Origin: a virus
Lineage: Duplodnaviria; Heunggongvirae; Uroviricota; Caudoviricetes
Virus record (IMG/VR): IMGVR_UViG_3300026382_000001
Direction: 5' to 3' (one strand)
DNA: 64,000 nt
The position numbers and the translations under genes were made by a program. Shown here piece by piece: positions 247 through 62,403 of this stretch. Every line of letters starts with the position of its first letter. The first letter of the stretch is position 1. The notes below the pieces were generated by a model, which made no database searches, was not told the origin of the DNA, and was given only the letters and a program-made list of their open reading frames with translations.

Positions 247-282
247 GACAGGAAATAACTAAGGATAGTTCCTTAGTTATTT
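247..282 (-). terminator. hairpin + TTTCCTGTC element
   Basis: ATAACTAAGGA/TCCTTAGTTAT stem at the stop of ORF 281..856, followed by the conserved motif. Confidence 0.75.
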
Positions 283-856
283 AATATTTATATCTTAATT
301 CTGGATCAATTTCATCTAAATTTTTTGAAGTACTCGCTCTAGTATTTATTTGAACACCTGCTTTATTTTCTCGATGCGCTGGTAAAGCAAATTTTTTAGT
401 TTCTTGACCAACTGGTATTTTATTTCCACTGGATATTGTGCGCGCTTCGTTATGTAATTTATTAATTTCTTCTTTCGTGTTTTTAGTTCCGGCATTTAAT
501 AACTTTCTGGTTTTTTCCAGTTTTGTATTCGTTATATTTTTTTTATATCTTTTTATTGAACCTTTAAAACCATGATCTATAGAATCTTTTAAAGCTTTTC
601 TTTTATCCGAAAATGTAATTCTAGATCCTTCTTTTCTAATTTTTTCGTTAGTTTTTTCTAGTTTTTTAGCATCCGCTCTTTTAGCTTTTATTTCTTTTGC
701 CATTTTTGTTCTAGCTTGAGTAACTTTTTTAAATTCATGTATGTTTTTTTTAGCAGCGGCTCTTTTATCTAAGTTAGCATCTCCAGTATGATTAGACTCT
801 TCTAAAATTTTAGTAGCTTCTTGGATTAGTAAATTTTTATTTATTTCTAAAATCAT
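281..856 (-). CDS. basic putative internal head protein; N-terminus shared with 13588..14064
   Basis: MILEINKNLLIQEATKILEES vs MILEINKNVLVEEAVYILEES; Lys-rich remainder. Confidence 0.55.
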   Translation of the reverse strand: MILEINKNLLIQEATKILEESNHTGDANLDKRAAAKKNIHEFKKVTQARTKMAKEIKAKRADAKKLEKTNEKIRKEGSRITFSDKRKALKDSIDHGFKGSIKRYKKNITNTKLEKTRKLLNAGTKNTKEEINKLHNEARTISSGNKIPVGQETKKFALPAHRENKAGVQINTRASTSKNLDEIDPELRYKY

Positions 857-884
857 TTTTTGATTCCCTTATTTATTTTTATTT

Positions 885-2615
885 TTAGTTATCTTTCAAT
901 ATATAAACTGCTGTTCCAGGACCATGTAAAATTCTATAACCATTATTTATAATATTATCATTAACTGATAAATTTTCAGTATAAATAAAATCTGGTATAT
1001 TTTTTAATTTATGTTTCATAAAATATTCTCTTGGTATTAATTTAGAACAATCCTTAGAGACAAATTTTAAATCTGGGTTATTATTTTTAATATGTTTAAA
1101 TCCTAAAGATAAATAAACATTATTTTTAGTACTAGAAAAAGTTCGATTTCCGTATGATATTATACTTGGATAATTAAATAACCTTTGAAAATTCTTTAAT
1201 AATTTTCCAGCCGCACCAATAATATTATAATTTTTTTTAGAACAGAACCGTATTAATTCAAAATCGTAATTTTTATTATATCTACTTTTAGAAAATGTCA
1301 TTACCGATATTAATTCATCATTAAAAAATAATCCATATCTATATTGAGAGTTACTTGATCCCTGTATATGATTTTCTTTTAAAAATATATTTGTTGTTTT
1401 AGAATCTATTTCTTGAATTTGACATTTTCTAGCATATATTTTATTATAATTTAATTTTAACTTATTTTTAATCATACTTTTAATAATTTCTTTTTTGTTC
1501 CACCAATCATTTTCAAAAATATGGAATAAATTTATATTTTTATTTTCACATAATTCAGTTTTTTCTTTATGTCTTGAGCGTTGGAATAAATAATCACCTT
1601 GAGATTCAGAAACATTATTTAAACCATAACTATGCCAATACAAACCATTATATTCAAATGCTAAATTATATTCGGGTAAATAAATATCTAACTCATATGG
1701 TTTGATAATATTTCTAGAATTTTTAATAATTTTTATATCTGGTTTTAATGATAAAATATATTTTATTATTTCTTCTTCCGCTCTAGAAGTTCCAGTTAAT
1801 TTTGTATAAGTTATATTAAATTTTTTAAGATAAGTATGCCCATCATTATGAAGGGAATTAAAATTAAAATACTTATCAAATTCTGTTTTTTTAAAGGTAT
1901 TTGTTTTTTCATCAATAAAATTTTCTTCTATAAATTTTTTATTTAAATCTAAAGGATTTTTTCTATTTTGTTGTCTTGAATACATATAACCTTTTTTTAA
2001 TAATTGTTTATTAAAAAATTCTTTTTTTAATTCTGGGTTTTTCATATAATGTGAATAACCATATTTTTTTATACAATTATTTTTTGTTTTTTGAATTACT
2101 TCTGGATTTTTACGAGGATTACTATACCCAGTTTTTTCAAAATAATTTTGCTTTCTTTTTTCTTTAATTTCTATTAATTGTTGTGGATTACGAACACCAA
2201 AATTTTTTAAAGAAGTTTCCTCTTTTTTTAATTTTATATTTTTTAATTGTGATATATTCTTAACACCATATTTTTCCAAATTTGTTTTTTGAGTTTTTTC
2301 TTTACGATTTTTTTTAGATACTTGAATTACATCTGGATGTTTAATATGTTCTTTACAACTAAGTCGTAATCGTTTATGATTAGGTATATAAAGTTTAGCA
2401 TGATTACAACTGTTAATTATACATTTACAATCTTCTGGTTTATACTTTTTTAAAATATTTATTAAATATGATAATTTATATTCTTCTAAAAATGAATATC
2501 TTTCATATAATTCTTTTAAAAAATTATTTTGTTCTAAAGTTCTATTTTTAATAGTACTTTGATTAAACATTAAATTATCTTTTAAAAAATTTAAGTCGAT
2601 TAATTCTTTTATCAT
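885..2615 (-). CDS. Hef-like homing endonuclease (EKYGV repeats, PD-(D/E)XK domain, C-terminal GNAT-like domain)
   Basis: NLEKYGV/KNFGVRNP/EKTGYSNP repeats; ELDIYLPEYNLAFEYNGLYWH; YARKC...FLKENHIQG. Confidence 0.75.
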   Translation of the reverse strand: MIKELIDLNFLKDNLMFNQSTIKNRTLEQNNFLKELYERYSFLEEYKLSYLINILKKYKPEDCKCIINSCNHAKLYIPNHKRLRLSCKEHIKHPDVIQVSKKNRKEKTQKTNLEKYGVKNISQLKNIKLKKEETSLKNFGVRNPQQLIEIKEKRKQNYFEKTGYSNPRKNPEVIQKTKNNCIKKYGYSHYMKNPELKKEFFNKQLLKKGYMYSRQQNRKNPLDLNKKFIEENFIDEKTNTFKKTEFDKYFNFNSLHNDGHTYLKKFNITYTKLTGTSRAEEEIIKYILSLKPDIKIIKNSRNIIKPYELDIYLPEYNLAFEYNGLYWHSYGLNNVSESQGDYLFQRSRHKEKTELCENKNINLFHIFENDWWNKKEIIKSMIKNKLKLNYNKIYARKCQIQEIDSKTTNIFLKENHIQGSSNSQYRYGLFFNDELISVMTFSKSRYNKNYDFELIRFCSKKNYNIIGAAGKLLKNFQRLFNYPSIISYGNRTFSSTKNNVYLSLGFKHIKNNNPDLKFVSKDCSKLIPREYFMKHKLKNIPDFIYTENLSVNDNIINNGYRILHGPGTAVYILKDN

Positions 2616-2658
2616 ATTATATCCTTTAGTTAAAATATCTATATAAATATAATTAGAT

Positions 2659-2706
2659 AACTATTCATAGTATGTGTATCAATAGTTAACTATTGATAGT
2701 TATTCG
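2659..2706. repeat. palindromic AATAGTTAACTATT repeat cluster 1
   Basis: 22-bp perfect palindrome TATCAATAGTTAACTATTGATA at 2677-2698; flanks near-identical to 13477-13511. Confidence 0.85.
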
Positions 2707-2726
2707 ATAATTTTCTTTTATTTAAA

Positions 2727-2763
2727 GACATGAAATTATTAGAAGCTTAAGCTTCTAATAATT
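2727..2763 (-). terminator. hairpin + TTTCATGTC (variant) element
   Basis: perfect inverted repeat at 2734-2763 at the protease stop, followed by a one-mismatch motif. Confidence 0.7.
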
Positions 2764-3610
2764 ATTTAAGTTTAATACTTTTTTGATATTTAGTAGTATC
2801 CATTTTAAGGGATTGTTCTACTAAGTAATCAATACTTTCGTTAAGAGGTCTAGCCATACATATACCATTAATACATACTTGTCCAGTCATTCCTTCCATA
2901 GCGGCTTTACCATCTTCTCTAATACTTTCAAAAAGACTTCTTGATTCTTCCATAATTTGGGGATGAACTTCGTTTTGAAGAGCTTTTTTGTATTCAGTCA
3001 TTTCTTGAAGTAATTCTTTAAGTTTATCTTTCGCAGAAGCTTCTTCACCCTCAGCTAAGAATTCTTGAATTAGGGCATTATCATGCGATGGCATACAAAC
3101 TACATCAAAAGTTAAACCTTTAATATCATCTGCAAGAACTACTGTAGTTCCATTTTCATTTTTAGTACTTCCAAATGCTCTTAAAGAGAATCCAATACTA
3201 ATATTATCTTTTAAAAGATCTCTAACGATGCGACCACTTGGTGTATTAAGAGTTTCTACTTCGGCGTATATTTTACCATCAATAAAATCTAGTTTTCTGA
3301 AAAGTACACAAACGTTCTGTAAAAGAATAGTACTACTTCTTTTCATTTTAGCAGCCATATCCCCTTGAGGTTGTGGATGATCTAATTCTCCAAGTAGTTT
3401 ACGAGTTCTTGCTTTATCTCTTAATTGATAAACGATAGCTTGTAAAGTCTCGCTTGGGTACATTCTCTTATTATTATTAATAACATTAGCTTCTTGCAAA
3501 ACCGCTCTAAAAATTAGTCTCGAATCCGTACTTCCAGGAACCATAGATTCTTCTAAAATTTTTACAGGAGTATTCGATGTATAAGCTTCTTCCGATATAG
3601 ATTGAAACAT
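2762..3610 (-). CDS. prohead core protease (T4 gp21-like)
   Basis: NNNKRMYP, LLGELDHP, ETLNTPSG, IGFSLRAFG and FDVVCMPS motifs. Confidence 0.88.
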   Translation of the reverse strand: MFQSISEEAYTSNTPVKILEESMVPGSTDSRLIFRAVLQEANVINNNKRMYPSETLQAIVYQLRDKARTRKLLGELDHPQPQGDMAAKMKRSSTILLQNVCVLFRKLDFIDGKIYAEVETLNTPSGRIVRDLLKDNISIGFSLRAFGSTKNENGTTVVLADDIKGLTFDVVCMPSHDNALIQEFLAEGEEASAKDKLKELLQEMTEYKKALQNEVHPQIMEESRSLFESIREDGKAAMEGMTGQVCINGICMARPLNESIDYLVEQSLKMDTTKYQKSIKLK

Positions 3611-3640
3611 ATGTGATTCCTTAATTTATTTAATTTTAAT

Positions 3641-3652: not shown

Positions 3653-3681
3653 ATAACTAAAGATACATGTCTTAAAAAAAC

Positions 3682-9346: not shown

Positions 9347-12300
9347 CTATAACGTACATCCACCACCAGAACATCCTTCATCATCTGAAATAACTTCTTG
9401 GAGTTCTTCTGTATCATTATCTGTTTTAGTTTTAGCATAATACAATGTTTTAATTCCAAACAACTCTGTAAATAAATCTCTTCTGATTACTTCGGATTTT
9501 GGAATTTTTCCATCAGGATATTTTGTAAAATCAACATACTCATTAATACTAATTGCTTGGTCAATAAATTTTTGCATAATAGCAATAAGTTTCCAGTATT
9601 CTATAATATCTAAATTCCAAGCGGAATTATATTCATAAAATGAATCATATTCTTTTGAATTAGGAAGAATAGCCGTAATTTTCATATTGTTATCTTCGAT
9701 ACTATATTCTGTACCCTGTGGGGGATTAATTCCTGAGATCATGTTTCCAGGTCTACTAGAATTCGAACTAGGAACTGCTGTAAGTAAAGTACTATTTCTT
9801 AAACCATATTTTTGAATATCTTTTCTAAGAAGTTTCCACATGTCCAAAGTAATACTAATTGCTTGAGACATTGGTAAAGATTTTAAAGAGTATAAAGAAT
9901 CCACATTTCTTTCATAAGTGTCTATTGGTAATTGACCTTTAGAGTATTTAGTATCTTGGTAATAATTACATGATCCTTTTTCCTTAGCTATTTCATTACT
10001 AGCTTTTAAACCATAATAAAGAAACTCTTCGAATACAACTGCTGTTAATGCTCTAGCTTTTGGAGTATCGTAGTTATATCCATGCTTAGCTAACATATAG
10101 AAATAATTTCCTGGACTAATTCCAAGAGCTCTTCTATTTTTAGTAAACTTTTCAAATGGTTTAATATCCTGATAATCCTGTTTATCTATCATTTCGTCTA
10201 AGAAATAAACCATAAGATACATATTTTTTTCGAACTGTTGTCTACGTACTTTTGGATCTGTACTAAGATTACCAAAGTTAATTCCACCAAGAATACAAGA
10301 AAATATTTCTCCAAAATTTAAAGTAAATTTATTGGAATTATCAGAATTATCTAAGAAACTTAAATGGATATCTACTACCCAAGCATTTTTTTCATCAATA
10401 ACACCATATCTAATAAATCTATATAGTTGATACCATTTACCATCTTTATAAAGACCTTCTATAAATAATTGATAATTATTTTGATCTAGAACATTAATAA
10501 TATAATCCTCATCTGGAAAACTTGGTAAGGCTATCTCTGTACATAAATTCGAAGTATATACTGGTAAATTAAATGCACTGTGTTCTTGCATAGCCTTTGC
10601 ATTTACTTTATAATTTCTAGCAGTAATATATCTTTCATGAAAATATCTATCTTCTAAAGAAGATGCTTTAATAACTTTTCTAAATATTTTCCCTTCTTCA
10701 GCTAGTTTTTCATATTTAATATACTCTGCTTCGAATTCCGAAGTCCCAATAAGACTATATAATTCTCCAACATCATTTATATAAAATAATGAAATATCTT
10801 CGTCATTATCAAGGCGTTTTCTAAACACAGGATCAAATATAATTGCATGATCTGAATGTCTAACTGAAGCTTCGTCAGAACCTTTGTTATTTTTAAGTTG
10901 AAGAATATCTTCTATCTCAATATGGAAGAAAGGATAGTAATTTGTAATTGCTCCGGAACGTCCAGAATTTGGTTGAGTACTACTTCTAGAAATTGCTTCA
11001 TTAGCTTTTGCATAAGGAGTTATACCAGTATGTGTTTCAAAACCATTTCCAATATCTGCTCCTAAACCTCTAATGTTTCCTATATTTGCTCCAATACCTG
11101 CTCGAAGTTTAGTAATTAATTTATAAAGAGATTTACTACCATTTGCAATAGCTTCTATACTATCTCCAAAATCAAGACCTGAGCAATTATGGACTGCATA
11201 ATCACCTGCGATAAAAGTATGGTCGTCCTCCACTGTAATATCAATTACTTCTGTATCTTTATCTAAATATTCTTCTTTTTTAGTAATTTTAGTAAAATAA
11301 AAATCTTCTAAAAAGAAACCACCATTATAATGAATATTTTCTTTATAATTAAAATTATCATAAAAATCTTTATCGTAACCATTGGTATGTTTTTGTACGA
11401 ATTTTATAAATTCTTTTTCTAATGAAGCTTTAATATTAATATTATACGAATCTCTGGAATTTGGATTTTTTAATACATTATTTTTTTCAATATTTGTATT
11501 AATTTTATGACCATTTCTTAAATGCATTATTTTTAAAAGTTCTATAAATTTTTTATCTTTTAAAGATATTTTTAAAGTTCCAGAAGTTTTATTAAAACTT
11601 CCATCTCCTAAATAAGCACCTTTTAAAAAATATTTTTGTAATTCCGGTTCTTGAAATAATAAAATATTATTAAAATTATAGCCATCTTTTTTATAATATT
11701 GATCTTTAATATTATTAAGAATTAAATTAAAAAAGGTTTTAAGAATTTTAGAATTAAAAGTAAGAACTGCATATTTAGTTGGTTCGTAATTAATACTAAT
11801 ATTTCCATAAATTCCAAAATGTTTATAAATAGTTTCGTTTATAAATTCTAAATAATTAACCTCGTCCGTACTTACTGTAAATATAAAGGTTTGTCCTTTT
11901 TTATATGATGAACCTTCTGCTAAAAACCAACCAAAAACTTCCATTAAATTATTATCAATAGTAATAAAATTATTAATTGGTTTTATTAATTTATTTATTC
12001 CAGCATTACCATTATTTATATGATCTTTATCAATATTTCTAGAAACTATTTTTTCATCTAGTACTTCAAACTTTTTATTTTTAATACCTTTTTCATTTTG
12101 AATTAATTCGAAAATATTTAATGTATTTGAAATAATTTTTCTTGGTATAGGAATTCCAATATAATCACCAATATCCAAATTACCAGCCTCGTTATAATCC
12201 GCTATCGATAAATCAAAAATTTTATCTAATCCTGAACAATTATTTTTATAATAATTTTTAGTACTAAGGCAATATTTATAATTTCCTTGGCTTATGGGAC

Positions 12301-13237
12301 AAATTTTTCCAAATTTATCTCCACCAGATGGATTTCTAGCACATAAGATATCTTCTTTAATTATAGAAAATACTGGATGATTATCGGTACTATCTAAAGG
12401 TTCTTCTGAAAAAATAGTATTTAATTTTACAAATTTATTTTTAAAAGATTTGATAATATTAGTAACTTTTTTATAATTCCCAAAAGAAGTTAAAATTTCA
12501 TCGCCTATTTTAATGTCCCCTATTTCAATAAAATCAAATTCGTTTAATTTTATTAAAGTGTTTGGTTTAAAACACGAAGTCCAGCCTTTCATATTAGTAC
12601 GAATACCAACCATTCCTGGAGTAGGTAAAAATATATCGAATACTGCTAAAGCTTGATAAAATTCTAAAACCATTTTAGATCGAAATTTCTTATCCTTAAT
12701 AGTCGCAAAAATATATAAAGGTATTAAGAAGAATATTTCTTGTGGAGTTTCAATAGGCTTATTATCTCTTTTAATACTGTACTTTTTAATAAGTTGATTT
12801 AATCCTAAATAAGTAAATCTTAAATCATTATTGTAATCAATACATTTTGATAATTCATTTATTTCATCATCTGTATAATAAAAGAATAATTCTTTATCAT
12901 AATAACCTTTTTCCGCTCTTTCTCTAAGAGTACCGGCATTAAATTCTGGATTATAACTTCCATAAATATCTTTATAAAGATCTTGAAGCATAAGACGAGC
13001 TGGTGGGAATTGGGAATCGGGATTATTTTTATCTATCATATCAGCTGCTGTAAAAATAGCTGAAGTTTGAATATCTTTAGAATGCATTTCTGATTTAAGA
13101 CGTATTTTGAAATTACTAAAAATTTCAAAAGGATCCATATTTAAACCTTCACATGCATGTTTAAAATGAGTTAGTATTTTTTCCGAATTAAATGGTTCGA
13201 TTCTATTGTCTCTTTTGATTACGGTATAGTTCTCCAT
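9347..13237 (-). CDS. nrdA: ribonucleotide reductase class Ia alpha subunit with intein and N-terminal ATP cone
   Basis: VIKRD ATP cone, PTP, RAGIG, SNLCTEI, KTLYY, C-terminal CSGGGC. Confidence 0.96.
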   Translation of the reverse strand: MENYTVIKRDNRIEPFNSEKILTHFKHACEGLNMDPFEIFSNFKIRLKSEMHSKDIQTSAIFTAADMIDKNNPDSQFPPARLMLQDLYKDIYGSYNPEFNAGTLRERAEKGYYDKELFFYYTDDEINELSKCIDYNNDLRFTYLGLNQLIKKYSIKRDNKPIETPQEIFFLIPLYIFATIKDKKFRSKMVLEFYQALAVFDIFLPTPGMVGIRTNMKGWTSCFKPNTLIKLNEFDFIEIGDIKIGDEILTSFGNYKKVTNIIKSFKNKFVKLNTIFSEEPLDSTDNHPVFSIIKEDILCARNPSGGDKFGKICPISQGNYKYCLSTKNYYKNNCSGLDKIFDLSIADYNEAGNLDIGDYIGIPIPRKIISNTLNIFELIQNEKGIKNKKFEVLDEKIVSRNIDKDHINNGNAGINKLIKPINNFITIDNNLMEVFGWFLAEGSSYKKGQTFIFTVSTDEVNYLEFINETIYKHFGIYGNISINYEPTKYAVLTFNSKILKTFFNLILNNIKDQYYKKDGYNFNNILLFQEPELQKYFLKGAYLGDGSFNKTSGTLKISLKDKKFIELLKIMHLRNGHKINTNIEKNNVLKNPNSRDSYNINIKASLEKEFIKFVQKHTNGYDKDFYDNFNYKENIHYNGGFFLEDFYFTKITKKEEYLDKDTEVIDITVEDDHTFIAGDYAVHNCSGLDFGDSIEAIANGSKSLYKLITKLRAGIGANIGNIRGLGADIGNGFETHTGITPYAKANEAISRSSTQPNSGRSGAITNYYPFFHIEIEDILQLKNNKGSDEASVRHSDHAIIFDPVFRKRLDNDEDISLFYINDVGELYSLIGTSEFEAEYIKYEKLAEEGKIFRKVIKASSLEDRYFHERYITARNYKVNAKAMQEHSAFNLPVYTSNLCTEIALPSFPDEDYIINVLDQNNYQLFIEGLYKDGKWYQLYRFIRYGVIDEKNAWVVDIHLSFLDNSDNSNKFTLNFGEIFSCILGGINFGNLSTDPKVRRQQFEKNMYLMVYFLDEMIDKQDYQDIKPFEKFTKNRRALGISPGNYFYMLAKHGYNYDTPKARALTAVVFEEFLYYGLKASNEIAKEKGSCNYYQDTKYSKGQLPIDTYERNVDSLYSLKSLPMSQAISITLDMWKLLRKDIQKYGLRNSTLLTAVPSSNSSRPGNMISGINPPQGTEYSIEDNNMKITAILPNSKEYDSFYEYNSAWNLDIIEYWKLIAIMQKFIDQAISINEYVDFTKYPDGKIPKSEVIRRDLFTELFGIKTLYYAKTKTDNDTEELQEVISDDEGCSGGGCTL
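11186..12574 (-). mobile_element. 463-aa intein with LAGLIDADG homing endonuclease, inserted just before the Cys225-equivalent of NrdA
   Basis: starts CFKPNT after GWTS; block B TDNHPV; GWFLAEGS and KGAYLGDGS; ends DITVEDDHTFIAGDYAVHN then Cys. Confidence 0.93.
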
Positions 13238-13365: not shown

Positions 13366-13511
13366 ATAACTATTAATAGTTAACTATTGATACCACGTGG
13401 TATCAATAGTAAGTATAGTTATCTATATACGTTTGTCTCTTTAGTTGATGGTATCAATAGTTAACTATTTATAGTGTGTGTATCAATAGTTAACTATTTA
13501 TAGTTATTCGA
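13366..13511. repeat. palindromic AATAGTTAACTATT repeat cluster 2
   Basis: cores at 13375, 13456 and 13485; 28-bp perfect palindrome at 13383-13410. Confidence 0.88.
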
Positions 13512-13539
13512 ATGATTTAGGTTGGTCATATCATTTAAA

Positions 13540-13578
13540 GACAGGAAATTAACTTAGAGAATATTCTCTAAGTTAATT
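13540..13578 (-). terminator. hairpin + TTTCCTGTC element
   Basis: perfect inverted repeat at 13547-13578 downstream of ORF 13588..14064. Confidence 0.78.
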
Positions 13579-13587: not shown

Positions 13588-14064
13588 TTAAAATCTTCCT
13601 TTTTTACCTTTTTTACTTTCTTCTCTACGTTTTCTATCTTTTTCATCTATTTCATCATTCTTTTTCTTAAGACTATTTGGAGTTTTTAAAATAGTTCCTG
13701 GAAATGATTGTGGATCATTTGTAGTTCTTCCTAAAACGTTTTCAACCTTTTCTTTAATAGTAGCTTGTTTTAAACCTTTGGAATTTCCTATTGGTTTTAA
13801 TGATCCATTTTTACTTGGCAAAGTATTTTGATCTGGCCAAACATTCGTTATACTTTTATTAGTATAACCATCTTTTTCCGATTTTACTCTACTTGAACCA
13901 GTAGTATCTTTATTGTACTTACGTAAACGTTTGATATGTTTCGTTAAATTATTTCTAAAAGGATCTGCACTTTTTAAAGCGCTTTTAACACGACCTTTTA
14001 TAGACTCTTCTAATATATATACAGCTTCTTCAACTAATACGTTTTTATTTATTTCTAATATCAT
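13588..14064 (-). CDS. basic putative internal head protein; N-terminus shared with 281..856
   Basis: shared MILEINKN...ILEES leader. Confidence 0.55.
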   Translation of the reverse strand: MILEINKNVLVEEAVYILEESIKGRVKSALKSADPFRNNLTKHIKRLRKYNKDTTGSSRVKSEKDGYTNKSITNVWPDQNTLPSKNGSLKPIGNSKGLKQATIKEKVENVLGRTTNDPQSFPGTILKTPNSLKKKNDEIDEKDRKRREESKKGKKGRF

Positions 14065-15739: not shown

Positions 15740-15751
15740 TAGTTCTTTGTT
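15740..15751 (-). promoter_or_regulatory. putative phage promoter, AACA-N6-TA (AACAAAGAACTA)
   Basis: just downstream of a terminator element, about 35 nt before the ATG at 15706. Confidence 0.45.
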
Positions 15752-15755
15752 AAAA

Positions 15756-15791
15756 GACAGGAGAAACCTATTGGAATTATCCAATAGGTTT
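15756..15791 (-). terminator. hairpin + TCTCCTGTC (variant) element
   Basis: AAACCTATTGGA/TCCAATAGGTTT stem spanning the stop of 15777..16445. Confidence 0.7.
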
Positions 15792-16445
15792 TATTTCTGG
15801 TCGTAATTTAGTATTATCTTTACTTCTACATTTAACGTGATTTAAATTCATTGGATTGGAACAATCCAATTCTCTATTTATTCTAGGAGTACCTGCTTGA
15901 GTTAAGTTTCCAGTTTTAGCATTATTTAAATATCTATTTACTTTTAAACCATTATCTTGATTTTTCTGAGACATTTTGGTTCCATGTAAACCAGTAGTAT
16001 TAACTTTTTTTTCTCCAATTATTCCATCCGTTTGATGTTTAATTCCTGGAGTTGGTTTAACTTCTTCTCCAAAAGCTCTTTCTTCAAAAAGATTAAAAAC
16101 TCTTGGTAAAGCAGTTTCTTCAAATATAGAAGAACTTGGAGTACTTTTACCAGCTCCTAATTTATCAATAATTGAATTAACATTATGTTCATCATTTCTT
16201 TTTAAATTAGTAAATACCGTTTTAGAACCACGAAGAACGTTTTTTTCAGCGCTTTGAACATCGCTTCTCATATGAGCCAAAGGATCTGAAACTTCACTTT
16301 GAACACTATTTACAGATGTTTTATCAAATGCTGTTCCTTTATCTTTATTCGCAACATTATGTTCGGTTATACGTTTAGTAATATCTTTGAACATTGTTGG
16401 AGAAGATAAAGGATTATTATAAGATTTCTCCAACACACTTCGCAT
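15777..16445 (-). CDS. hypothetical protein, possibly an internal head protein
   Basis: VLEK, IFEE and LFEE motifs; low-complexity basic C-terminus. Confidence 0.5.
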   Translation of the reverse strand: MRSVLEKSYNNPLSSPTMFKDITKRITEHNVANKDKGTAFDKTSVNSVQSEVSDPLAHMRSDVQSAEKNVLRGSKTVFTNLKRNDEHNVNSIIDKLGAGKSTPSSSIFEETALPRVFNLFEERAFGEEVKPTPGIKHQTDGIIGEKKVNTTGLHGTKMSQKNQDNGLKVNRYLNNAKTGNLTQAGTPRINRELDCSNPMNLNHVKCRSKDNTKLRPEIKPIG

Positions 16446-17424: not shown

Positions 17425-18150
17425 TTAAGTTTTTGTTATGTTCGTTAATATAGTTAAAATATTATTAAATTCTTTATAATTTATTCTTAAAAGTTCTATA
17501 TTGTTTTCTTTAAGAAATTTTTCTTTAATTCTATCACGTTCTTGAGTTTTTAAGAATCCTTCTAAACCACCAAAATATTCAACTGGTTCAGAATGCTGTT
17601 TACCATCATACTCAATGACAGTATTTAAATCTTCTAAATAAAAATCAAATCTATAATTCTCAAAGAGTTTAACTTCTTGAGAGTACTTAATATTATTCTC
17701 TTCTAGAAATTCTCTAATTTTTCGTTCACCTTTAGATTCTTTACATTTTGGACATCCAGAACCTAATTTATGCATATTTGGAGTTTGAAAAAAACTTCCA
17801 TGCTTTGGACAAATTATTTCTATTTTAGTATTTGTATTTTTAAAAATAATTTTTGAATAATTATACTTATTATTATGAGCTTTTTTAAAATCATTAATAT
17901 GTTCCTTTAAATTTTTTAAAGGTTTTTTTTTACTAAGTTTATGGCATTTTGGACAGCCATTGCCATGTTTGTGCATATTAATAGTTTGTAAAAATTCCCC
18001 ATGTTCCGGACAAATTATTTTTATTTTAGTACTCGTATTTAAATATTTAATATTTTTATATTCTTGTAATGAATTTAAGTAATTATATTTATCAAAATGA
18101 ACTTTTTGAAAATCTTTAAGGTGTTCTTTTATATTTTTTCTTTTTTTCAA
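17425..18150 (-). CDS. homing-type endonuclease with zinc-ribbon repeats and PD-(D/E)XK C-terminal domain (TTG start)
   Basis: 2 x CxxHG.F.Q....H..G.GCPKC; FDFYLEDLNTVIEYDGKQH. Confidence 0.8.
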   Translation of the reverse strand: MKKRKNIKEHLKDFQKVHFDKYNYLNSLQEYKNIKYLNTSTKIKIICPEHGEFLQTINMHKHGNGCPKCHKLSKKKPLKNLKEHINDFKKAHNNKYNYSKIIFKNTNTKIEIICPKHGSFFQTPNMHKLGSGCPKCKESKGERKIREFLEENNIKYSQEVKLFENYRFDFYLEDLNTVIEYDGKQHSEPVEYFGGLEGFLKTQERDRIKEKFLKENNIELLRINYKEFNNILTILTNITKT

Positions 18151-18169
18151 AATATTTCCTTATATTACA

Positions 18170-18207
18170 GACAGGAAATTAACCTCCCCATCGGGGGAGG
18201 TTAATTT
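18170..18207 (-). terminator. GC-rich hairpin + TTTCCTGTC element
   Basis: AAATTAACCTCCCC/GGGGAGGTTAATTT stem after the stop at 18214. Confidence 0.82.
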
Positions 18208-18213: not shown

Positions 18214-18768
18214 TTATCTAGGATAAACGTTTGGATTAACTTTATTTAAAGTATTCATTGCTGTACCTGAAACAACATTGTCTGGACTACCAACATTAGT
18301 AGTAACTTCACCACTTGTTTGTAATGTTTGTTGAGCTTGGATATTACGTAATTTAGCTGCTTCGTCTGGACTCATTCCATTAGTACCTACAACATCAGAT
18401 TGATTATTAATAGGAACTGGTTGAGTAATTACTTCGCCTTCTGGAGTTACTTCACCTTTATTTAAATAATCCGTTGGATTAGCTGAAGCTCCTGATAAAT
18501 AATCATGAATAGTATCACGATTATCATAAGCTAAAGCACCAGCACCTAAAGCACCAGCACCTGCAGCATATTTGCCCCAGTTATTAGATAAGTTAGCTTT
18601 GGCCGCATCCACTACACCTTCTTCCATAAGGATCTTTCCAATCAGGTGAAGATTCTCAGTAAGATATTTTTTAGTTTTTAATGATTCTAATTCAGTTGTA
18701 CCTTCTTCAAGTACACTGATCATATATTCATCTCTTTTATTTTCGATTACTTTATTTAATAATGCCAT
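18214..18768 (-). CDS. putative internal head protein with Gly/Ala hydrophobic segment, paralog B1
   Basis: same leader as 16844..17404 (63 bp identical); YAAGAGALGAGALAY. Confidence 0.6.
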   Translation of the reverse strand: MALLNKVIENKRDEYMISVLEEGTTELESLKTKKYLTENLHLIGKILMEEGVVDAAKANLSNNWGKYAAGAGALGAGALAYDNRDTIHDYLSGASANPTDYLNKGEVTPEGEVITQPVPINNQSDVVGTNGMSPDEAAKLRNIQAQQTLQTSGEVTTNVGSPDNVVSGTAMNTLNKVNPNVYPR

Positions 18769-28240: not shown

Positions 28241-28495
28241 AACTATTAATAGTTAACTATTCATAGTGTCAACTAACCTACTATAGCCAGTTATTTCAAA
28301 AAGACAAAAAATTTTAAAACCTAAAATTTAAGAAATAGTTAAATTTTCAATCCTTTATAACACCGGAAAATAGGGGACTTGGTTTTTGATTTTAAGTTTA
28401 TTTTAAAATCTGTTAGCTAGAGATTTTAAAAACAAACAACTATTAATAGTTAACTATTAATACCACGCACTATGAATAGTTAACTATTAATAGTT
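28241..28495. repeat. palindromic repeat cluster 3; 255-bp segment bounded by perfect 28-bp inverted repeats in the divergent intergenic region
   Basis: 28241-28268 is the reverse complement of 28468-28495; cores at 28248, 28445 and 28475. Confidence 0.88.
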
Positions 28496-28551: not shown

Positions 28552-29022
28552 ATGGAAAGAGAAAACACAGTAATTAAAATATATTCTGAAACTGGAAGAA
28601 TACCAGAATACGGTACGGCTAACAGCGCAGCCTTTGATATAGAAGCTAAGGAAGAAATTAAGTGGAAAACTTATCAGGATTACCACGTCGCAACAATTAG
28701 TACTGGTTTATATACATCATTCGATGATAAATATGTTTTAAAAATTTATCCAAGATCTGGTTTAGGATTCAAGTATCAAATGGGATTGGCAAATACGATT
28801 GGAATTATAGATAGTGATTATAGAGGAGAAATAATGGTAAAATTGGTAGTTCCAAGTACAATACCAACTGAATTATTACCAACTGAAGCAGGATCTAGAA
28901 TTGCTCAAGCTATTTTAGAAGAAATTCCAAGAGTTTATTTTAAAACATTAACGAAAGAAGAATTCGACAAAGAAAAAAATACTGAGCGAGGAGAAGGTGG
29001 TTTTGGAAGCACCGGATTATAA
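28552..29022 (+). CDS. dut: trimeric dUTPase
   Basis: all five motifs present: AAFDI, PRSG, GIIDSDYRGEI, RIAQ, RGEGGFGSTG. Confidence 0.95.
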   Translation: MERENTVIKIYSETGRIPEYGTANSAAFDIEAKEEIKWKTYQDYHVATISTGLYTSFDDKYVLKIYPRSGLGFKYQMGLANTIGIIDSDYRGEIMVKLVVPSTIPTELLPTEAGSRIAQAILEEIPRVYFKTLTKEEFDKEKNTERGEGGFGSTGL

Positions 29023-30043
29023 AAAATCTAATAGAATTATTAATAAAATAGAAGAGTGTAATATTGCTAGATTAAATTCAAATAAATTAAAAGAACTATA
29101 TGGTGATTATAAATCCAAATATAGTTCTCGTTTAAAAATTGACACTGGTTTTAGATGTAATGCTAAATGCACTTATTGTTATTATTTAACTAAGGTTAAT
29201 GACGAATTTATTCCTAAAGAAGAAATTATTACTCAAATAAATAAAGCCAAAGAATTAAATTTTAAAAGTATTGAATTCAGTGGTGGTGAAAGTACTATTC
29301 ATCCAGATTTTTTAGAATGTGTTAGTTACGCTAAATCATTAGGCTTAATTACTTCGGTTATTACAAATGGTTATTTAAATCATGAGGAAATAAGAAGTAT
29401 TATAGATAGAGGAATAGATGAAATTATGTTCAGTATTCATGGATTTAGAGATACTCATGATAAGATAGTTAAATTAGATAAAGCATATGAAAAAATATTT
29501 AGTAATCTTAGAGTAATTCATAATCATCCAAGTAATGTAAAAGCTAGACTAAATATTATAGTAAATAATAAAAGTATTTTTGAATTGGGTGATATAATTG
29601 AGGATTTTTTAAATCAACATTCATTTTATTTAATTAATATTCATGAAATCAATTTCTTACCAATTAACGAATGGGACGATGCTAAAATAATTGGTGAACG
29701 TTCGCAGTCGATAGTTCATGAAAATATTAATCTTTTGGAAGAAGTACTAGACAGAATAATTCTTAAAAAAATTAAATTAAATATAAGATATTTAGAATAT
29801 TGTTTTTTATCTGAAAAGTATCATAAGTATTTATATAATTACTTAGATCATTATTTTACTAATGATTGGAATCCTTTTTATATCTATAAAGAAGATATTT
29901 TAAATGAAAATAAAAATGAATTTAATTTAGATAAAATAAAAAAGGATTTATTTTTTAAAAGAAAAACACAATACTATAAAGATATAAAATGTATCAAATG
30001 TCCTTGGAATATTAAATGCGATGGTTTTAAAAATAAATCCTAA
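28997..30043 (+). CDS. radical SAM protein with C-terminal CxxCxxxxxC
   Basis: CNAKCTYC, FSGGEST, ITNG, FSIHG; KCIKCPWNIKCDG. Confidence 0.88.
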   Translation: MVLEAPDYKKSNRIINKIEECNIARLNSNKLKELYGDYKSKYSSRLKIDTGFRCNAKCTYCYYLTKVNDEFIPKEEIITQINKAKELNFKSIEFSGGESTIHPDFLECVSYAKSLGLITSVITNGYLNHEEIRSIIDRGIDEIMFSIHGFRDTHDKIVKLDKAYEKIFSNLRVIHNHPSNVKARLNIIVNNKSIFELGDIIEDFLNQHSFYLINIHEINFLPINEWDDAKIIGERSQSIVHENINLLEEVLDRIILKKIKLNIRYLEYCFLSEKYHKYLYNYLDHYFTNDWNPFYIYKEDILNENKNEFNLDKIKKDLFFKRKTQYYKDIKCIKCPWNIKCDGFKNKS

Positions 30044-30081
30044 CAAAAATACATTCAAAAGTTATTAAACGAGGAGGATAA

Positions 30082-30345
30082 ATGATCTCTTTTAATTATA
30101 GTGAAATATTTAATATTGATTTAAATATGATAATTTTTATGATTTTACTTTTTGTATTAGCTGTAATATTATTAAATGGTTTAATTTATTTATATAAAAA
30201 ATTATTAAAAGGTAAAAAAAGAATTACTGATAAAAAACATATAACAGATTTAGAAATTGATAAACATGAAGTTAATAATTATCTAAATGGTCTTAATAAA
30301 AAACGTAGAAAATCAGATATTAATATAGATATAAAAGAATTTTAA
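30082..30345 (+). CDS. small single-pass membrane protein
   Basis: GAGGAGG SD; MIIFMILLFVLAVILLNGLIYLY followed by a basic tail. Confidence 0.7.
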   Translation: MISFNYSEIFNIDLNMIIFMILLFVLAVILLNGLIYLYKKLLKGKKRITDKKHITDLEIDKHEVNNYLNGLNKKRRKSDINIDIKEF

Positions 30346-30349: not shown

Positions 30350-30411
30350 AATTTAACGACAGGAAAAAACTTATAGATTAATTTCTATAAGTTTTTTCCT
30401 GTCGTTAAATT
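30350..30411. terminator. bidirectional hairpin element with TTTCCTGTC on both strands
   Basis: 28-bp perfect arms between convergent genes; each strand reads hairpin then TTTCCTGTCGTT. Confidence 0.88.
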
Positions 30412-30868
30412 AAGAAAGATCTTTTCCTAATTGGATATAGTATATTCCATTTTCTTTTTTATCCAAAGTTTCTAAAATATTTTTCATATCTTCTAAGGTT
30501 TCTGGTTGAAAATATTCTATATTTGATAATTCCATAATTCCCAAATCATCATCTAATTTATGCCCAGCTCCTAAAGTTTCATAACCGTACTTACCAGCAT
30601 TACATATAATTATTTTACCATTCTTAGAACCAAAATCTCTGCAACTAAATTTTAATTGTTCGTATCGATGAATTATAAAACCAGCAACTCCATAAATATA
30701 TACCGTATTACCAAGACTAGATAAACCACCAGTGATATTTAATAAATTACTTTCGCCAAGACCAATATTAATTACCTTGGCTTTTGTTGGAAAGTTTTTA
30801 GTATTAAACATATCAGCATGTAATAAGTATTCTTCTTTTTTTAAATAAGCTGCCATTAATTTACGCAT
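30410..30868 (-). CDS. transketolase-like pyrimidine-binding subunit (short)
   Basis: NIGLGESNL..GG, FIIHRYEQLK, GAGH..DD. Confidence 0.78.
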   Translation of the reverse strand: MRKLMAAYLKKEEYLLHADMFNTKNFPTKAKVINIGLGESNLLNITGGLSSLGNTVYIYGVAGFIIHRYEQLKFSCRDFGSKNGKIIICNAGKYGYETLGAGHKLDDDLGIMELSNIEYFQPETLEDMKNILETLDKKENGIYYIQLGKDLS

Positions 30869-54677: not shown

Positions 54678-54734
54678 AAGATTCCTTTGATATACTTTGG
54701 TAAGGTTATTTAATATTTAGTTCGAAAGATAAAA

Positions 54735-54765
54735 GACAGGAAAATCTTAGGCAAAAGCCTAAGAT
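54735..54765 (-). terminator. hairpin + TTTCCTGTC element
   Basis: ATCTTAGGC/GCCTAAGAT stem after the portal stop. Confidence 0.8.
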
Positions 54766-54769: not shown

Positions 54770-57016
54770 TTATTGAACTTGCTCTGGAGGCTGAGCTAAG
54801 TTTTGCATAATCTGTTCTTTAATCTGTTCTTTAATCTCTGTTTCTCCACCACGTTTTAATTTATCCCACGGTAGGTTAGGAGCATAAAGTTTAAATAATT
54901 CTTCTGGATCTACCTTCATTCCTGCTTGAGAAAGAGTTCCAACTAGATTACCAATACTACTAATAACTGCTTCGCTATTTTGCAATTGTAAAATAACCGG
55001 AGCATTTAAAGTAAATTTCATGTATTGTGTAATATTAAAAGATTTATAATCTTTATTATTAGCTTTAAGTACTTTTTGAAAGACTGTATTAATTAAATCG
55101 TTTAATGCATCTTCAATATAACCTTGATAAGTAGTAATACTATTGGCGAAAGTAATATTAAGATTTACTAAAGTTTCTCTTTGTTCTATATTTTCTCCAA
55201 TATTTAAAAATACTGATGGAATACCTGTAGCTGCAATAAGTTCATTTCTAAGATCACCTAAATCATTAATAGGCAATGCTCTATCATGCATAGGCATAAC
55301 TTCCATATCAATAAATTTTTGACCATTCTTAGATACTGTAGCAATATCACGGAAGTCAGTCATAATTTGAGAAATATTTTTCATTGAACCTAAATCATCG
55401 TATGAAATATTTTTAGTTTTAAGTTCTTTTTGAACATTTTGAACTATTTGTGAATGGTTTCTTCGTTTACCAACTTCAATATTCCATTTACGAACAACAG
55501 AAGCTCTACTTAATCTAGATATAACCGAACTTAAAAGAGCGATCGTATATAGTTTAACTGGAAGAACTATTGGATCAAATACGCTAGTTGCATAAGGAGC
55601 AAACTTATCAATATTTGTATGAAAGTTAATTAAATTATTTGCTTCTACCAATCTAAATTTTAGTTTAGATCTTTTCTTAATTTTTTCATAAAGAATAACT
55701 TTAAGACTAAATGATAATTCTTCTGGTAAATCCTCTATAAAGTTATTAGAAATTGCTAAATGTTCTTTTAATTTAAAAATAATTTCTTTACTAAATTTAT
55801 CTATTACTTCATCTGTAGTTTTCTTATTAGTAAGAGATTCTTTATTACTAGTGTTATCGTCATCATTAGCAAATCTTTTATAAAGGTTTACTTCGTCTGC
55901 TTCGGCACCTTTATTTAACTCTTCAATTACTAAATAACCAAAGTTAATCCCATCTTGTTCTAATTTAATAACAGATGTAGGTTGAATAAATTTTAAATAA
56001 ATATTTTTAATAATATCGAAATCTAAATCTTTTATATTATTAATATCGAATAAATCTGATTGAAAACCACTTTGTTCTAATTCTCCAATTTGATCCATAT
56101 AAACATCATTAAATAAATTAATATCATTCTCTTGGATACTTTCTTTAGATTTTAAAATATTTATAAATTGTTCGGAAGGAGCTTCTGTATAATTTTCCTG
56201 AATTTCTTCTTTTTGAATTATCGGAAGTTCTAGATATCCCAAATTACAATTAGCAGTAACATTTTTATCTTCCCCATAAAAAGTAATATTTTCAGTAATC
56301 AATTCTGATCTAGTTTCGGCGATTTTAGAAATACCTGAAAGATCAATTACCTCCATATAAAAGTCGCCGTATTTGAGAGTATTATGGATAATACTATTTT
56401 TTAATTTATTTTGAATATCAAAATAAACTAAAAATGTTTTCATAAAATTTGAAATATTCTTTTTAACATTTTCATCTAATTTAATCATCAATTCATTATG
56501 ATCATTTTCAATAATATTTATAAATTGTTTATTTTGAATATTTTTAATAAGAATATTATCAATGTAAACTCTAAGCATTCTATAAGCGATTGGATTGATT
56601 TCTGATATTTCATTGTAAAGATCGTAAATTTGTTTTCTATTATTACTAATATTACCATTGTTAAATATTTTTAAAATATCATCTGAGTTAGTATTTAGTA
56701 AATCATCTAAATCTTTATTTTCTTCATCTTTCTCAGCTTTATCCGATTTAATACTACTCATTCCTGTAAGAACTGGATTAATATTATTTATTTCTATTCG
56801 CTGAACATTAGAACTAAATAGTTGCATATCAGAACTACCATTAACAACTTCAGAATATATTTTATCAAATTCGTTTGTTATTTGATCTAAATTATCTAAA
56901 TCATCCAGAACGTTTATTGCATTCTGTTCTGGAGTTTGTTGAGACTGTTCCTGATTCATTTGGTTAGGATCTTGACTTGGATCAGGTATTCCCCAATCAT
57001 TGTATTCATTTGCCAT
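54770..57016 (-). CDS. portal protein (T4 gp20-like)
   Basis: LKYGDFY, SVFDP, SRLSRA..VRKWNIEVG, DL..LRNELIAATGIPSVFL. Confidence 0.72.
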   Translation of the reverse strand: MANEYNDWGIPDPSQDPNQMNQEQSQQTPEQNAINVLDDLDNLDQITNEFDKIYSEVVNGSSDMQLFSSNVQRIEINNINPVLTGMSSIKSDKAEKDEENKDLDDLLNTNSDDILKIFNNGNISNNRKQIYDLYNEISEINPIAYRMLRVYIDNILIKNIQNKQFINIIENDHNELMIKLDENVKKNISNFMKTFLVYFDIQNKLKNSIIHNTLKYGDFYMEVIDLSGISKIAETRSELITENITFYGEDKNVTANCNLGYLELPIIQKEEIQENYTEAPSEQFINILKSKESIQENDINLFNDVYMDQIGELEQSGFQSDLFDINNIKDLDFDIIKNIYLKFIQPTSVIKLEQDGINFGYLVIEELNKGAEADEVNLYKRFANDDDNTSNKESLTNKKTTDEVIDKFSKEIIFKLKEHLAISNNFIEDLPEELSFSLKVILYEKIKKRSKLKFRLVEANNLINFHTNIDKFAPYATSVFDPIVLPVKLYTIALLSSVISRLSRASVVRKWNIEVGKRRNHSQIVQNVQKELKTKNISYDDLGSMKNISQIMTDFRDIATVSKNGQKFIDMEVMPMHDRALPINDLGDLRNELIAATGIPSVFLNIGENIEQRETLVNLNITFANSITTYQGYIEDALNDLINTVFQKVLKANNKDYKSFNITQYMKFTLNAPVILQLQNSEAVISSIGNLVGTLSQAGMKVDPEELFKLYAPNLPWDKLKRGGETEIKEQIKEQIMQNLAQPPEQVQ

Positions 57017-61900: not shown

Positions 61901-62288
61901 AACTTTTACCAGCGTTAAGCATTGAATCCAAAGCTTGTACTCCGGAAACTTTTCCACCTCTTTTTAAATCGATATTTCGAGAATTAGTATCCTTAATATC
62001 TTTCGTAGCTTGTTTTTGCATACCTCTATACATAATTGGAGCCATAGCCGCACCAATCGCAGAACCACCCATAGTAGCATAATCTGACCATTCCGCATTA
62101 CCAGTTACACCAGCTGCCAGATTTCCTACTGCTCCACCAGCCATAGGGGCCATCATACCACCGATAGTTCCTATTGGTCCAGTCTTTTGAGCAAGTTTAT
62201 CATATTTTTTACCTAAGTAACTTTTTGCGTGGTCCTCTTCTAAACGTTCGACGAGAGATTTATTATATTCTTGACTATTTGCACCCAT
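58953..62288 (-). CDS. tape measure-like protein
   Basis: 1111 aa; Gly/Ala/Met-rich helical segments; FLPIPGARIVGGLIMAGAG. Confidence 0.6.
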   Translation of the reverse strand: MGANSQEYNKSLVERLEEDHAKSYLGKKYDKLAQKTGPIGTIGGMMAPMAGGAVGNLAAGVTGNAEWSDYATMGGSAIGAAMAPIMYRGMQKQATKDIKDTNSRNIDLKRGGKVSGVQALDSMLNAGKSSKGAFMGGMAGGYGYGALTGNMMDPATMMLAGKASSALSNPGAMAYLAASQMAGANYFGNIFGNEKTHQAALLGSSVQGLGGMASHFGFEGLGKGLTDMGGGIHDMTGMGGSLTGMLTYMLASAGGNKLMKSIKSSAQAKDTKKYNYKIGDLGRPASTDRDVTKYDTMKSVAAQVNLLTVTGQLSPFESLALGYYQSMDKHLLFLNAIYDILNDEEHSKLNKKEDIFGTHNEIGDLFNEFAYDENGFSTKNSYIKKEKKGYAERTGDRLSDIYHDTTEFLQNASTDTNAFFEAWNPLKILTGGLLGNSSTKNIKALYGLDEESKKDDAIAQTASNINVPSSMVQVAEMDISQVMKMSDTIEGKQLAVQSFSASLLQNLLRLRLEEKSKSETGSSFFNQTQKNYDSLNHDSWFDKLKDSAVMGLGNVPILNVIAAEIMAGKGRKKRKEDLDNVKGPQIVESLALSESNEINNDDFLSLQFPSLFLENISLDEERNQLLRQMLECWNCDLSKIKKKSFGVYDAINGQVTDEVGVQNSFKDKFNEDSSSIYEQYKLAIENDPKNEKEYLVRRDEEILGLKKKLVNSYEQSSLKFSDVSSNSIGASQEKEKDEKYKSKMLEAFEAIAENNKNKKDDINENDINNNQNKMGMVKSGWSQYKGLVSKYGLMFGSLFGAGKLAGNLTKMAVKSLFSFVVSHKKMGTALGAAAALGYLAYNYKDDETVKKGINTLTGWTKAITDKVSFSTDIDDYSNAALVGMFGRAVMFLPIPGARIVGGLIMAGAGLLTLNYDKIADDFAAEYPKLAKFLHIGSKNNYSVKNTNGQSNAVGGMGVSREARIRNEQLKQDLKYANKLRHVELLKVTDLKKELQYIKDDKLRKRAESLLDKLNKDKSDYIDKADRKGREKEFDNLQKELNKILEHSLGANSSIILKYIEAHTELSKKERIQMSSDNAIQNIHLRNLISEQISASKYQIAAIRPKEDILIR

Positions 62289-62312
62289 AGAAGATTTCCT
62301 TTGTTTTTATTA

Positions 62313-62326
62313 TATTATCTTTTGTT
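62313..62326 (-). promoter_or_regulatory. variant AACA promoter-like box (AACAAAAGATAATA)
   Basis: upstream of the tape measure ATG; spacing differs by one from the other copies. Confidence 0.3.
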
Positions 62327-62369
62327 AAGTTATCTATAATTAGTCCTCTATATTTCTTCGGAATTTAAC

Positions 62370-62403
62370 GACAGGAAAATTCTAGAAGCATTGCTTCTAG
62401 AAT
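62370..62403 (-). terminator. hairpin + TTTCCTGTC element
   Basis: ATTCTAGAAGCA/TGCTTCTAGAAT stem after the stop at 62410. Confidence 0.8.

Follow-up and report, generated by a model that had tools for sequence, protein, structure and literature searches.

The best described counterparts of the element treated here are the terminators of phiKZ and 201phi2-1, jumbo phages that carry two multisubunit RNA polymerases of their own. Mapping of phiKZ transcripts by ONT-cappable-seq gave 133 termination regions, 61 of which share a conserved hairpin followed by YTTATKYYGT, and six regions are bidirectional at convergent genes (Putzeys et al. 2024, PMC10914365). Motif A of 201phi2-1 closely resembles the phiKZ terminator motif (PMC11512511). 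We examined a 64,000-nucleotide stretch of DNA (the window) from the IMG/VR virus record IMGVR_UViG_3300026382_000001, in which eight loci at gene 3′ ends carry hairpins of unrelated sequence, directly followed on the sense strand by a near-invariant word, TTTCCTGTC (the box). A preliminary description of the window, made from its letters alone, had classed this element as a non-canonical terminator or processing signal. It has a precedent, a conserved hairpin-plus-tail terminator motif having already been published for phiKZ (PMC10914365) and 201phi2-1. What is new is the long near-invariant box combined with free stems, in a lineage remote from phiKZ.

We read the element as a hairpin terminator in which a sequence element specific to the lineage, and probably recognised by the phage polymerase, adds to a short U-stretch; we put the probability of this reading at roughly 60%. 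In essence this was also the leading idea of the preliminary description, and it is the best supported one once three points are put right: the polymerases are of the multisubunit kind, the signal includes an obligatory hairpin, and a related motif is in the literature.

The likeness to the published systems goes beyond the polymerases. In all three phages a 3′-end hairpin is followed by a conserved tail that is not plain U, convergent junctions have bidirectional copies, and the tails can be aligned (phiKZ CTTTATGTYGTT with TTTCCTGTCGTT here), the G lying equally far from the stem. In the phiKZ genome TAT follows 57 of 58 CCCTCCC-type hairpins, commonly as C-T-T-TAT-G-Y-Y-G-T-T. This tail matches TCCTGTCGTT at ~8 of 10 positions (T..TGTYGTT), at the same distance from the stem; one example is the phiKZ tail TATGTCGTTAA, which matches CCTGTCGTTAA of the present phage. 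The mapped phiKZ motif, given as a hairpin plus CTTTATGTYGT, likewise aligns with the box, and the phiKZ convergent junctions gp86/87 and gp129/130 have the tail on both sides, as does a palindrome in the window. The systems differ in which part is conserved. In phiKZ the hairpin itself is conserved (CCCTCCC...GGGAGGG; CCYCCCC / GGGRRGG) and the tail only moderately so beyond TAT(G), whereas here the stems are free and the tail is near-fixed over 9 nt and well conserved over 15. They differ also in that RNA 3′ ends have been mapped at the sites of phiKZ and 201phi2-1, whereas the sites here are known from sequence alone.

Source record and phage polymerases

The window corresponds, on the reverse strand, to positions 89256-153255 of one 167,008-bp virus record with 26% G+C. 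CheckV estimates the record to be ~59% complete, so the full genome must be jumbo-sized. It contains two beta-like genes of multisubunit RNA polymerases (two Rpb2_6 matches over the cut-off), one beta′-like gene (one Rpb1_2 match over the Pfam cut-off, 32.9 bits) and a second beta′-like fragment that is weak and below threshold (13.2 bits, E 0.008). By blastp of open reading frames (ORFs) against ORFs, the beta-like ORF of the virion RNA polymerase (vRNAP) matches the phiKZ ORF at 181.8-186.2 kb, and only seven matches between record and phiKZ were found, at 21-28% identity. Because of the polymerase genes and these seven weak matches, the phage is a very distant member of the group that transcribes its own genes with two phage-encoded multisubunit polymerases. 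A virion protein of the record has its nearest relatives in phiR1-37, RP12, pVa-21 and Staphylococcus jumbo phages. Protein searches with the record gave only distant jumbo-phage and Campylobacter-phage matches, and megablast of 17 kb against GenBank phages gave no match.

A T7-type polymerase (PF00940) was not detected in the ~59%-complete record, a search that had no positive control, the control genomes being silent as well. The preliminary description had proposed a terminator for a phage-encoded RNA polymerase, or else an RNA 3′ processing or protein-binding site. The phage does encode polymerases of its own, although these are two multisubunit enzymes rather than one of T7 type, and it is probably they that read the box.

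Enrichment, position and orientation of the box

Counted in the window with one mismatch allowed, the word occurs 16 times against 12.5 expected, which is not significant alone. Significance was judged instead by the exact word and its hairpin context over the whole record. TCCTGTC occurs 17 times in these 167 kb, against 3-6 expected under Markov models of order 1 to order 3. A perfect hairpin of at least 8 bp lies directly before 16 of the 17 copies, whereas the same holds for 1.6% of positions drawn at random and 7.5% of those between genes (binomial p ~1e-28 and ~1e-17, respectively). The one copy with no hairpin is inside a gene. Once three CATGTC variants are included, the record has 19 sites.

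The class II termination signal of T7 RNA polymerase, a single-subunit enzyme, consists of ATCTGTT with a downstream U-run; it is hairpin-free and orientation-dependent. The preliminary description had drawn a loose analogy to this signal, and the two do have in common a short CTGT-containing word and a dependence on orientation. The analogy stops at this resemblance, however: the word here is (T)CCTGTC, the hairpin, present before 16 of 17 copies, is obligatory, and the polymerases belong to the multisubunit family.

All 19 sites lie 16-65 nt past a same-strand stop codon. The next ORF is 7 to 304 nt away, on the same strand at 14 sites and convergent at the other five. Four related contigs give the same picture: 45 of their 50 sites are 6-74 nt (median 32) past a same-strand stop codon, the next start is -4 to 684 nt away (median 70), and 10 of the 50 face a convergent gene. 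Because every record site follows a same-strand stop and 5 of 19 face a convergent gene, the data support an orientation-dependent 3′-end signal and not a promoter. A genome-wide motif scan and an orientation test had been suggested in the preliminary description as checks, and both bear it out.

These positions also bear on whether the box is, or overlaps, a start signal of the phage non-virion polymerase for the next gene, the whole being a composite terminator-initiator. A short word that does not vary would sooner be expected of a phage promoter than of a terminator, 14 of the 19 sites have a same-strand gene downstream, and phiKZ late promoters are TATG with the G as +1 (PMC4666361, PMC12809450), much as TAT(G) follows 57 of 58 phiKZ terminator hairpins. 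A start signal should not, however, point into the 3′ end of a convergent gene, as it would at 5 of 19 sites (10 of 50 in the clade), nor sit on both sides of a convergent junction, in phiKZ too. The well-studied phiKZ late promoter P119L has no such hairpin, and TCCTGTC is found apart from one only once in 17 copies, within a gene. The spacing between box and next start codon, moreover, ranges from -4 to 684 nt, and other promoter-like words (TATAGATAT and AACTATTNATAGTT) intervene. We consider an initiator role improbable.

A terminator combined with a promoter is known from the PeSL cassettes of T4-type phages, which resemble our element in being a repeated intergenic terminator stem-loop with conserved adjacent sequence. 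There the conserved part is a sigma70-type early promoter for the next gene (Arbiol et al. 2010, PMC2839356). The box, by contrast, has no -35/-10 pattern of sigma70-like hexamers, its spacing is variable, and roughly one site in four points towards a convergent gene.

The eight loci in the window

The eight 3′-end loci of the preliminary description, with their unrelated stems, fixed box and two one-mismatch copies, were all recovered at the coordinates it had given, and it had missed no window site. They hold nine copies of the motif, seven of them exactly TTTCCTGTC. Read along the sense strand (the minus strand of the window), each box comes directly after a perfect hairpin of 9-14 bp. RNA folds of the loci have free energies (dG, in kcal/mol) of -13 to -21 with z of -4.7 to -5.8, the palindrome being much more stable, and the box is unpaired at every locus except the palindrome. 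An Rfam search of the window returned nothing. The features, with terminators being putative, are as follows.

241-281, minus strand: terminator 1; hairpin 254-281, box TTTCCTGTC at 247-255, tail GTTGGA; after ORF 281-856; dG -15.5, z -5.1.
2721-2763, minus strand: terminator 2; hairpin 2734-2763, one-mismatch variant box TTTCATGTC at 2727-2735, tail TTTAAA; after the head maturation protease-like ORF 2762-3610 and before a homing endonuclease gene; dG -13.8, z -4.7.
13534-13578, minus strand: terminator 3; hairpin 13547-13578, box 13540-13548, tail TTTAAA; after ORF 13588-14064; same site kept in contig G002; dG -15.9, z -5.8.
15750-15791, minus strand: terminator 4; hairpin 15764-15791, one-mismatch variant box TCTCCTGTC at 15756-15764; stem contains the stop codon of ORF 15777-16445, and the G002 orthologue has a U.G wobble; dG -16.3, z -5.6.
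18164-18207, minus strand: terminator 5; GC-rich hairpin 18176-18207, box 18170-18178; after ORF 18214-18768 and before an HNH endonuclease gene; dG -21.1, z -5.3.
30350-30411, both strands: bidirectional terminator at the convergent junction, a 28-bp palindrome; the minus-strand box 30358-30366 ends ORF 30410-30868 and the ~20-kb radical-SAM cluster, and the plus-strand box 30395-30403 ends the plus-strand genes 28552-30345; dG -39, z -15 on both strands.
54729-54765, minus strand: terminator 7; hairpin 54744-54765, box 54735-54743; after the 748-amino-acid ORF 54770-57016; in the contig L006 orthologue the stem differs by four compensatory changes and the box is the same; dG -13.1, z -4.8.
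62364-62403, minus strand: terminator 8; hairpin 62379-62403, box 62370-62378, tail GTTAAA; after ORF 62410-63318; the orthologues in contigs L005 and L006 share the box but not the stem; dG -13.3, z -5.0.

The motif had been noted on both strands at the convergent junction, and the palindrome at 30350-30411 is what accounts for it. The ~20-kb radical-SAM/paralogue cluster (window 30410-50798) has no internal hairpin-and-box site and ends at this bidirectional terminator, and for these reasons is probably one long transcription unit. Free-standing homing/HNH endonuclease genes lie directly downstream of two box terminators, at window 885-2615 (minus strand) and 17425-18150 (minus strand); they match PHROG 3339/559 with E 1e-121 and 3e-59. 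The large ribonucleotide reductase gene (window 9347-13237) carries a LAGLIDADG intein.

Conserved box and free stems

The consensus of the 50 sites in the four related contigs, TTTCCTGTC-G-T-T-A-A-A, is longer than first noted. Seven positions of the 9-nt core are fixed; the second T is C in 5 of 50 sites and the second C is A in 5 of 50. The six positions past the core are conserved in 60-88% of the sites. At the RNA level the stem is followed by UUU CC U G U C (in short form, an invariant UUUCCUGUC(GUUAAA)), so that a U-run of 3-4 nt is broken by CC, G and C. That the U-tract is too short for a classical terminator had been remarked at the outset, and indeed only two window sites pass a generic terminator scan (at least 5 T in 8) in sense orientation.

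The stems, in contrast, vary freely. There are 44 distinct stems among the 50 sites, their mean G+C is 37%, and their inner cores share a mean of 2.4 of 8 positions, which is the chance level. Since the stems are unrelated, the sites are not copies of one another, and we rejected the idea of copies of a mobile cassette on this ground. The conservation pattern indicates that the box is under purifying selection.

Only five stem pairs in the 50 sites are non-Watson-Crick, all of them G.U and none A.C. At orthologous sites whose flanking protein is 95% and 76% identical, the box is kept while the stems differ by compensatory substitutions (up to four). The G.U-only mismatches and the compensatory changes point to a hairpin that acts as sense-strand RNA, rather than as DNA or antisense RNA. 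They speak at the same time against a DNA-level signal between genes, be it a nick at a cruciform, a site of recombination or the target of a homing endonuclease. Cruciform extrusion is conceivable for perfect palindromic stems, and two sites do precede homing endonuclease genes. But the absence of A.C mismatches argues for a single RNA strand, the orientation follows the upstream gene at every site, and no more than 2 of 19 sites adjoin endonuclease genes. We regard a DNA-level signal as very improbable.

Distribution and drift among relatives

The exact 15-mer occurs in 109 IMG/VR stretches, and in 12 of these it is directly preceded by a perfect hairpin of 11 bp or more. All twelve are AT-rich jumbo-phage contigs with 24-31% G+C, one of them 226 kb in length. 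In three such contigs TTCCTGTC has 17, 12 and 4 copies, as against 1, 0 and 1 for the reversed control word, and nearly all follow a hairpin. The 226-kb contig (G001) has 53 ORFs in common with the phage at a median identity of 34%, and it keeps TTCCTGTCG; its tail past the box differs, being GC(T)AAAAA. Prokaryote genomes with the 15-mer gave no real hairpin in 120 sampled among the matches listed.

The box drifts with the identity of the vRNAP beta-like subunit. At 87, 75 and 57% identity the box TCCTGTCG is kept; at 47-48% it is TCCTGT(G/C)..AAA; at 43%, TTTTTGTCGT(T/C)AGAAAAAA follows a conserved hairpin; and at 42% the box is (T)TCTTGT(C/G). The graded variants in more distant relatives have the short forms TCCTGTG, TCTTGT and TTTTTGTCGTTAG, and the lineage forms of the box are CCUGUC, CUUGU and UUUUGUCGUUAG. 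This drift disposes of another candidate, anti-Shine-Dalgarno pairing of UUUCC with the GGAAA of phage ribosome-binding sites, which was rejected because relatives swap CC for UU or CU and the element is kept.

A more general measure is the frequency of TGT[CG] up to 12 nt after 3′-end hairpins, which is 36-69% in this clade against a background of 2-3%. The enrichment in phiKZ is modest (16% against 4%, p 2e-5), and pVa-21 has p 0.014; the counts are 0 of 67 in phiR1-37 and 1 of 85 in AR9, where plain T-runs are found. A universal box for all polymerase-encoding jumbo phages was rejected, TGTYGTTAA being unenriched in phiR1-37, RP12, Madawaska and AR9, and only weakly enriched in pVa-21. These comparisons support a box that is specific to phage lineage.

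Two phages have motifs of their own. Contig G006 (IMGVR_UViG_3300026484_000007) has ~20-25 terminators with a conserved hairpin (AAGTGATCT-loop-AGATCACTT, or AACCCTCGC...GCGAGGGTT) and a near-invariant 19-nt tail, TTTTTGTCGT(T/C)AGAAAAAA, which is longer than the CCTGTC box. Its box is placed after a full U5-8 tract, the canonical terminator layout. Yersinia phage phiR1-37 (NC_016163) has many 3′-end hairpins with the stem CCCTATATCCC...GGGATATAGGG, which occurs in either orientation and has (A/G)GTTT(T)ATT(T)AC after it. Here too the terminator motif is specific to the lineage, without the TGTC core.

Promoter-like words and a second tail type

A long promoter-like element, ACTTTAAAATAA-N10-12-TATAGATATCTTATAA, resembles the long AT-rich early promoters of phiKZ-type phages. 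It has six copies, all outside the window and mostly upstream of small ORFs.

Genome 163464, 84538, 83120, 67564, 47643 and 40045, all minus strand: copies of the long promoter-like element.

The first hairpin downstream of this element is followed by the box in 0 of 5 cases, the tails being T-rich, against 16-19 of 29 3′-end hairpins overall (hypergeometric p ~0.002-0.01). At genome 162109-162134, a hairpin bears the CCTGT box on one strand only; the side of the long-element unit has a T-run instead. Convergent genes at such hairpins appear to use different tail types. The pattern is compatible with each of the two polymerases having a terminator dialect of its own, though the numbers are small. 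Contig G004 also has several bidirectional hairpins in which one strand bears a CCTGT box and its complement a plain T-run.

The promoter-like words TATAGATAT and the AACTATTNATAGTT palindromes often stand between a box and the next gene and are more frequent than the box. The suggestion that the box is the phage's own promoter word, as TATG is in phiKZ, was not supported, since these two are the enriched upstream words. The record has 74 copies of the shorter word TATAGATA, and 21 of 97 upstream regions contain ATAGATAT. A palindromic AACTATT(C/G/A)ATAGTTAACTAT family, often tandem, also lies between a box terminator and the next gene (window 2640-2700 and 13380-13520), and elsewhere, for example at genome 892-920, 6694-6721, 28233-28263, 67099-67127 and 72.7 kb; the copy at genome 67099-67127 is the hairpin of a CATGTC-type box terminator. 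The members of this family are candidate operators or promoters. Finally, there are four near-identical non-coding repeats of ~170 nt or more, at window ~28296-28476 (genome 124780-124960) and at genome ~38.9, 51.0 and 84.75 kb, which contain several hairpins, among them TTTTAAAATCT...AGATTTTAAAA and AAAATTTAA...TTAAATTTT, as well as AACTATTAATAGTT palindromes. Three are at strand-switch junctions, and the 38.9-kb copy is inside a minus-strand gene block. The repeats could be divergent early promoter/operator regions, or origins.

The T-rich tails bring up the comparison with canonical intrinsic terminators. Those, like the element here, have a stable sense hairpin after the stop codon and then U residues, the upstream A-tract often pairs with the U's, and copies at convergent genes are bidirectional. 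The differences are that here the stems average 37% G+C, that the U-run is interrupted and 3-4 nt long as against a U-tract of ~7-8 nt, and that 12 nt past the U-run are sequence-conserved, which they are not in canonical terminators. One could still suppose an ordinary intrinsic terminator, usable by any bacterial-type polymerase, that of the host among them, in which the box is functionless and has persisted through descent, through mutational bias or because it is a U-tract with interruptions. The pyrimidine- and U-rich tail agrees with this, as do the two window sites that satisfy the generic scan and the activity of 201phi2-1 terminators with a related motif in uninfected cells. Descent by copying is countered by the unrelated stems, which mean that the sites are not mutual copies, and the box stays constant while stems and flanking proteins diverge to ~34% identity. 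Nor does composition force the box, because plain T-rich tails occur elsewhere in the same genome, and the sampled prokaryote genomes, among the matches listed, have no box at hairpins. An ordinary terminator with an idle box therefore has a low probability in our estimation.

Proposed mechanism

In the mechanism that we favour, a lineage-specific hairpin terminator, a stable hairpin of arbitrary sequence would form in the nascent RNA behind the polymerase. The box would sit in the RNA-DNA hybrid and the first downstream positions, with its short U-stretch weakening the hybrid, and CCUGUC(GUUAAA) would supply as sequence what a long U-tract gives ordinary intrinsic terminators. The polymerase would be held or destabilised ~6-9 nt past the stem, at the conserved U-G step, and the hairpin would then release the transcript. 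This step is common to every lineage variant (CCU-GUC, CUU-GU, UUUU-GUC and UAU-GU, with the hyphen at the step). What reads the box would most likely be the phage polymerase or an accompanying phage factor, because the box co-varies with phage lineage and not with anything cellular. The comparison among relatives suggests that part of the stop signal may be read as sequence.

A precedent for such reading comes from E. coli, where hairpin-dependent pausing is enhanced by a non-template G immediately past the active centre, and mutants of the core recognition element (CRE) pocket reduce intrinsic termination at lambda tR2 (PMC4499132). In both cases a hairpin is followed by a pyrimidine-G step at a fixed distance. 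The E. coli work, unlike our case, concerns single positions read by the E. coli polymerase and not a word of 9-15 nt, and an equivalent pocket in the phage enzyme would be an analogy. In phiKZ, a pocket of a beta-like subunit reads non-template TATG at late promoters, the G being +1 (PMC12809450, PMC4666361), and the phiKZ terminator tail contains this late-promoter word. Use of the same pocket at phiKZ terminators is speculation by analogy, and the idea does not transfer simply to the present phage, whose box is unlike its candidate promoter words. A fully specified version would have a sequence-specific pause/termination signal read by the non-virion polymerase, on the non-template strand or in the hybrid, through a CRE-like, TATG-type pocket of the beta lobe; the U-rich plus UGU(C/G) core would go back to a common ancestor of phiKZ and this rumen-type clade and would have co-evolved with the enzyme, and a second terminator dialect, hairpins with plain U tails at the probable early units of the long promoter-like element, would exist beside it. 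Taken together these parts make a tentative proposal that we consider, as a whole, less likely than not.

We infer termination rather than RNA processing. In the latter case, an endoribonuclease of the phage or the host would cut polycistronic transcripts in the single-stranded box, with the hairpin shielding the upstream 3′ end from exonucleases, or a protein would bind the box and stabilise the end. Position and orientation fit processing as well as termination, an invariant single-stranded stretch beside a hairpin, here of 15 nt, is what proteins or nucleases typically recognise, and the published phiKZ 3′-end maps do not separate the two processes. At the palindrome, however, the completed RNA has the whole box base-paired to its complement upstream, which would hide it from a single-strand reader. 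Because it can pair in this way, co-transcriptional reading fits better than recognition of free single-stranded RNA. In addition, the box opens with a U-stretch exactly where a terminator needs one, the G006 box follows a U5-8 tract as in a canonical terminator, and no candidate nuclease was identified. Processing or stabilisation seems unlikely to us, if less so than the other alternatives to termination.

Several points weigh against a terminator that depends on the box. The tail remains 60-70% U, and two window sites pass the generic scan. Eight 201phi2-1 terminators, some with the phiKZ-like motif, work well in uninfected P. chlororaphis (PMC11512511), so that a bacterial polymerase may need no more than a hairpin with a U-rich tail, and the box may not be required. 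The polymerase-encoding phages phiR1-37 and AR9 do not have the exact box, and pVa-21 has a weak echo of it. The likeness to the phiKZ tail spans ~10 positions, with the phiKZ columns weak beyond TAT(G), and would suggest rather than establish a common origin. Lastly, in data that consist of sequence, termination is indistinguishable from cleavage followed by trimming.

Significance

Published work on phiKZ and 201phi2-1 has described a conserved terminator motif with no proposed mechanism for their sigma-less, split multisubunit polymerases. In the phage described here the structural part of the stop signal is separated from the sequence part more cleanly than in phiKZ, the stems being free and a 9-15 nt tail kept. 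CCUGUC and its U-G step are a direct target for mutation, and the graded boxes of the relatives form a natural co-variation experiment between signal and polymerase. The box marks transcription-unit ends in uncultured jumbo-phage contigs, and it could supply orthogonal terminators for expression systems based on phage polymerases.

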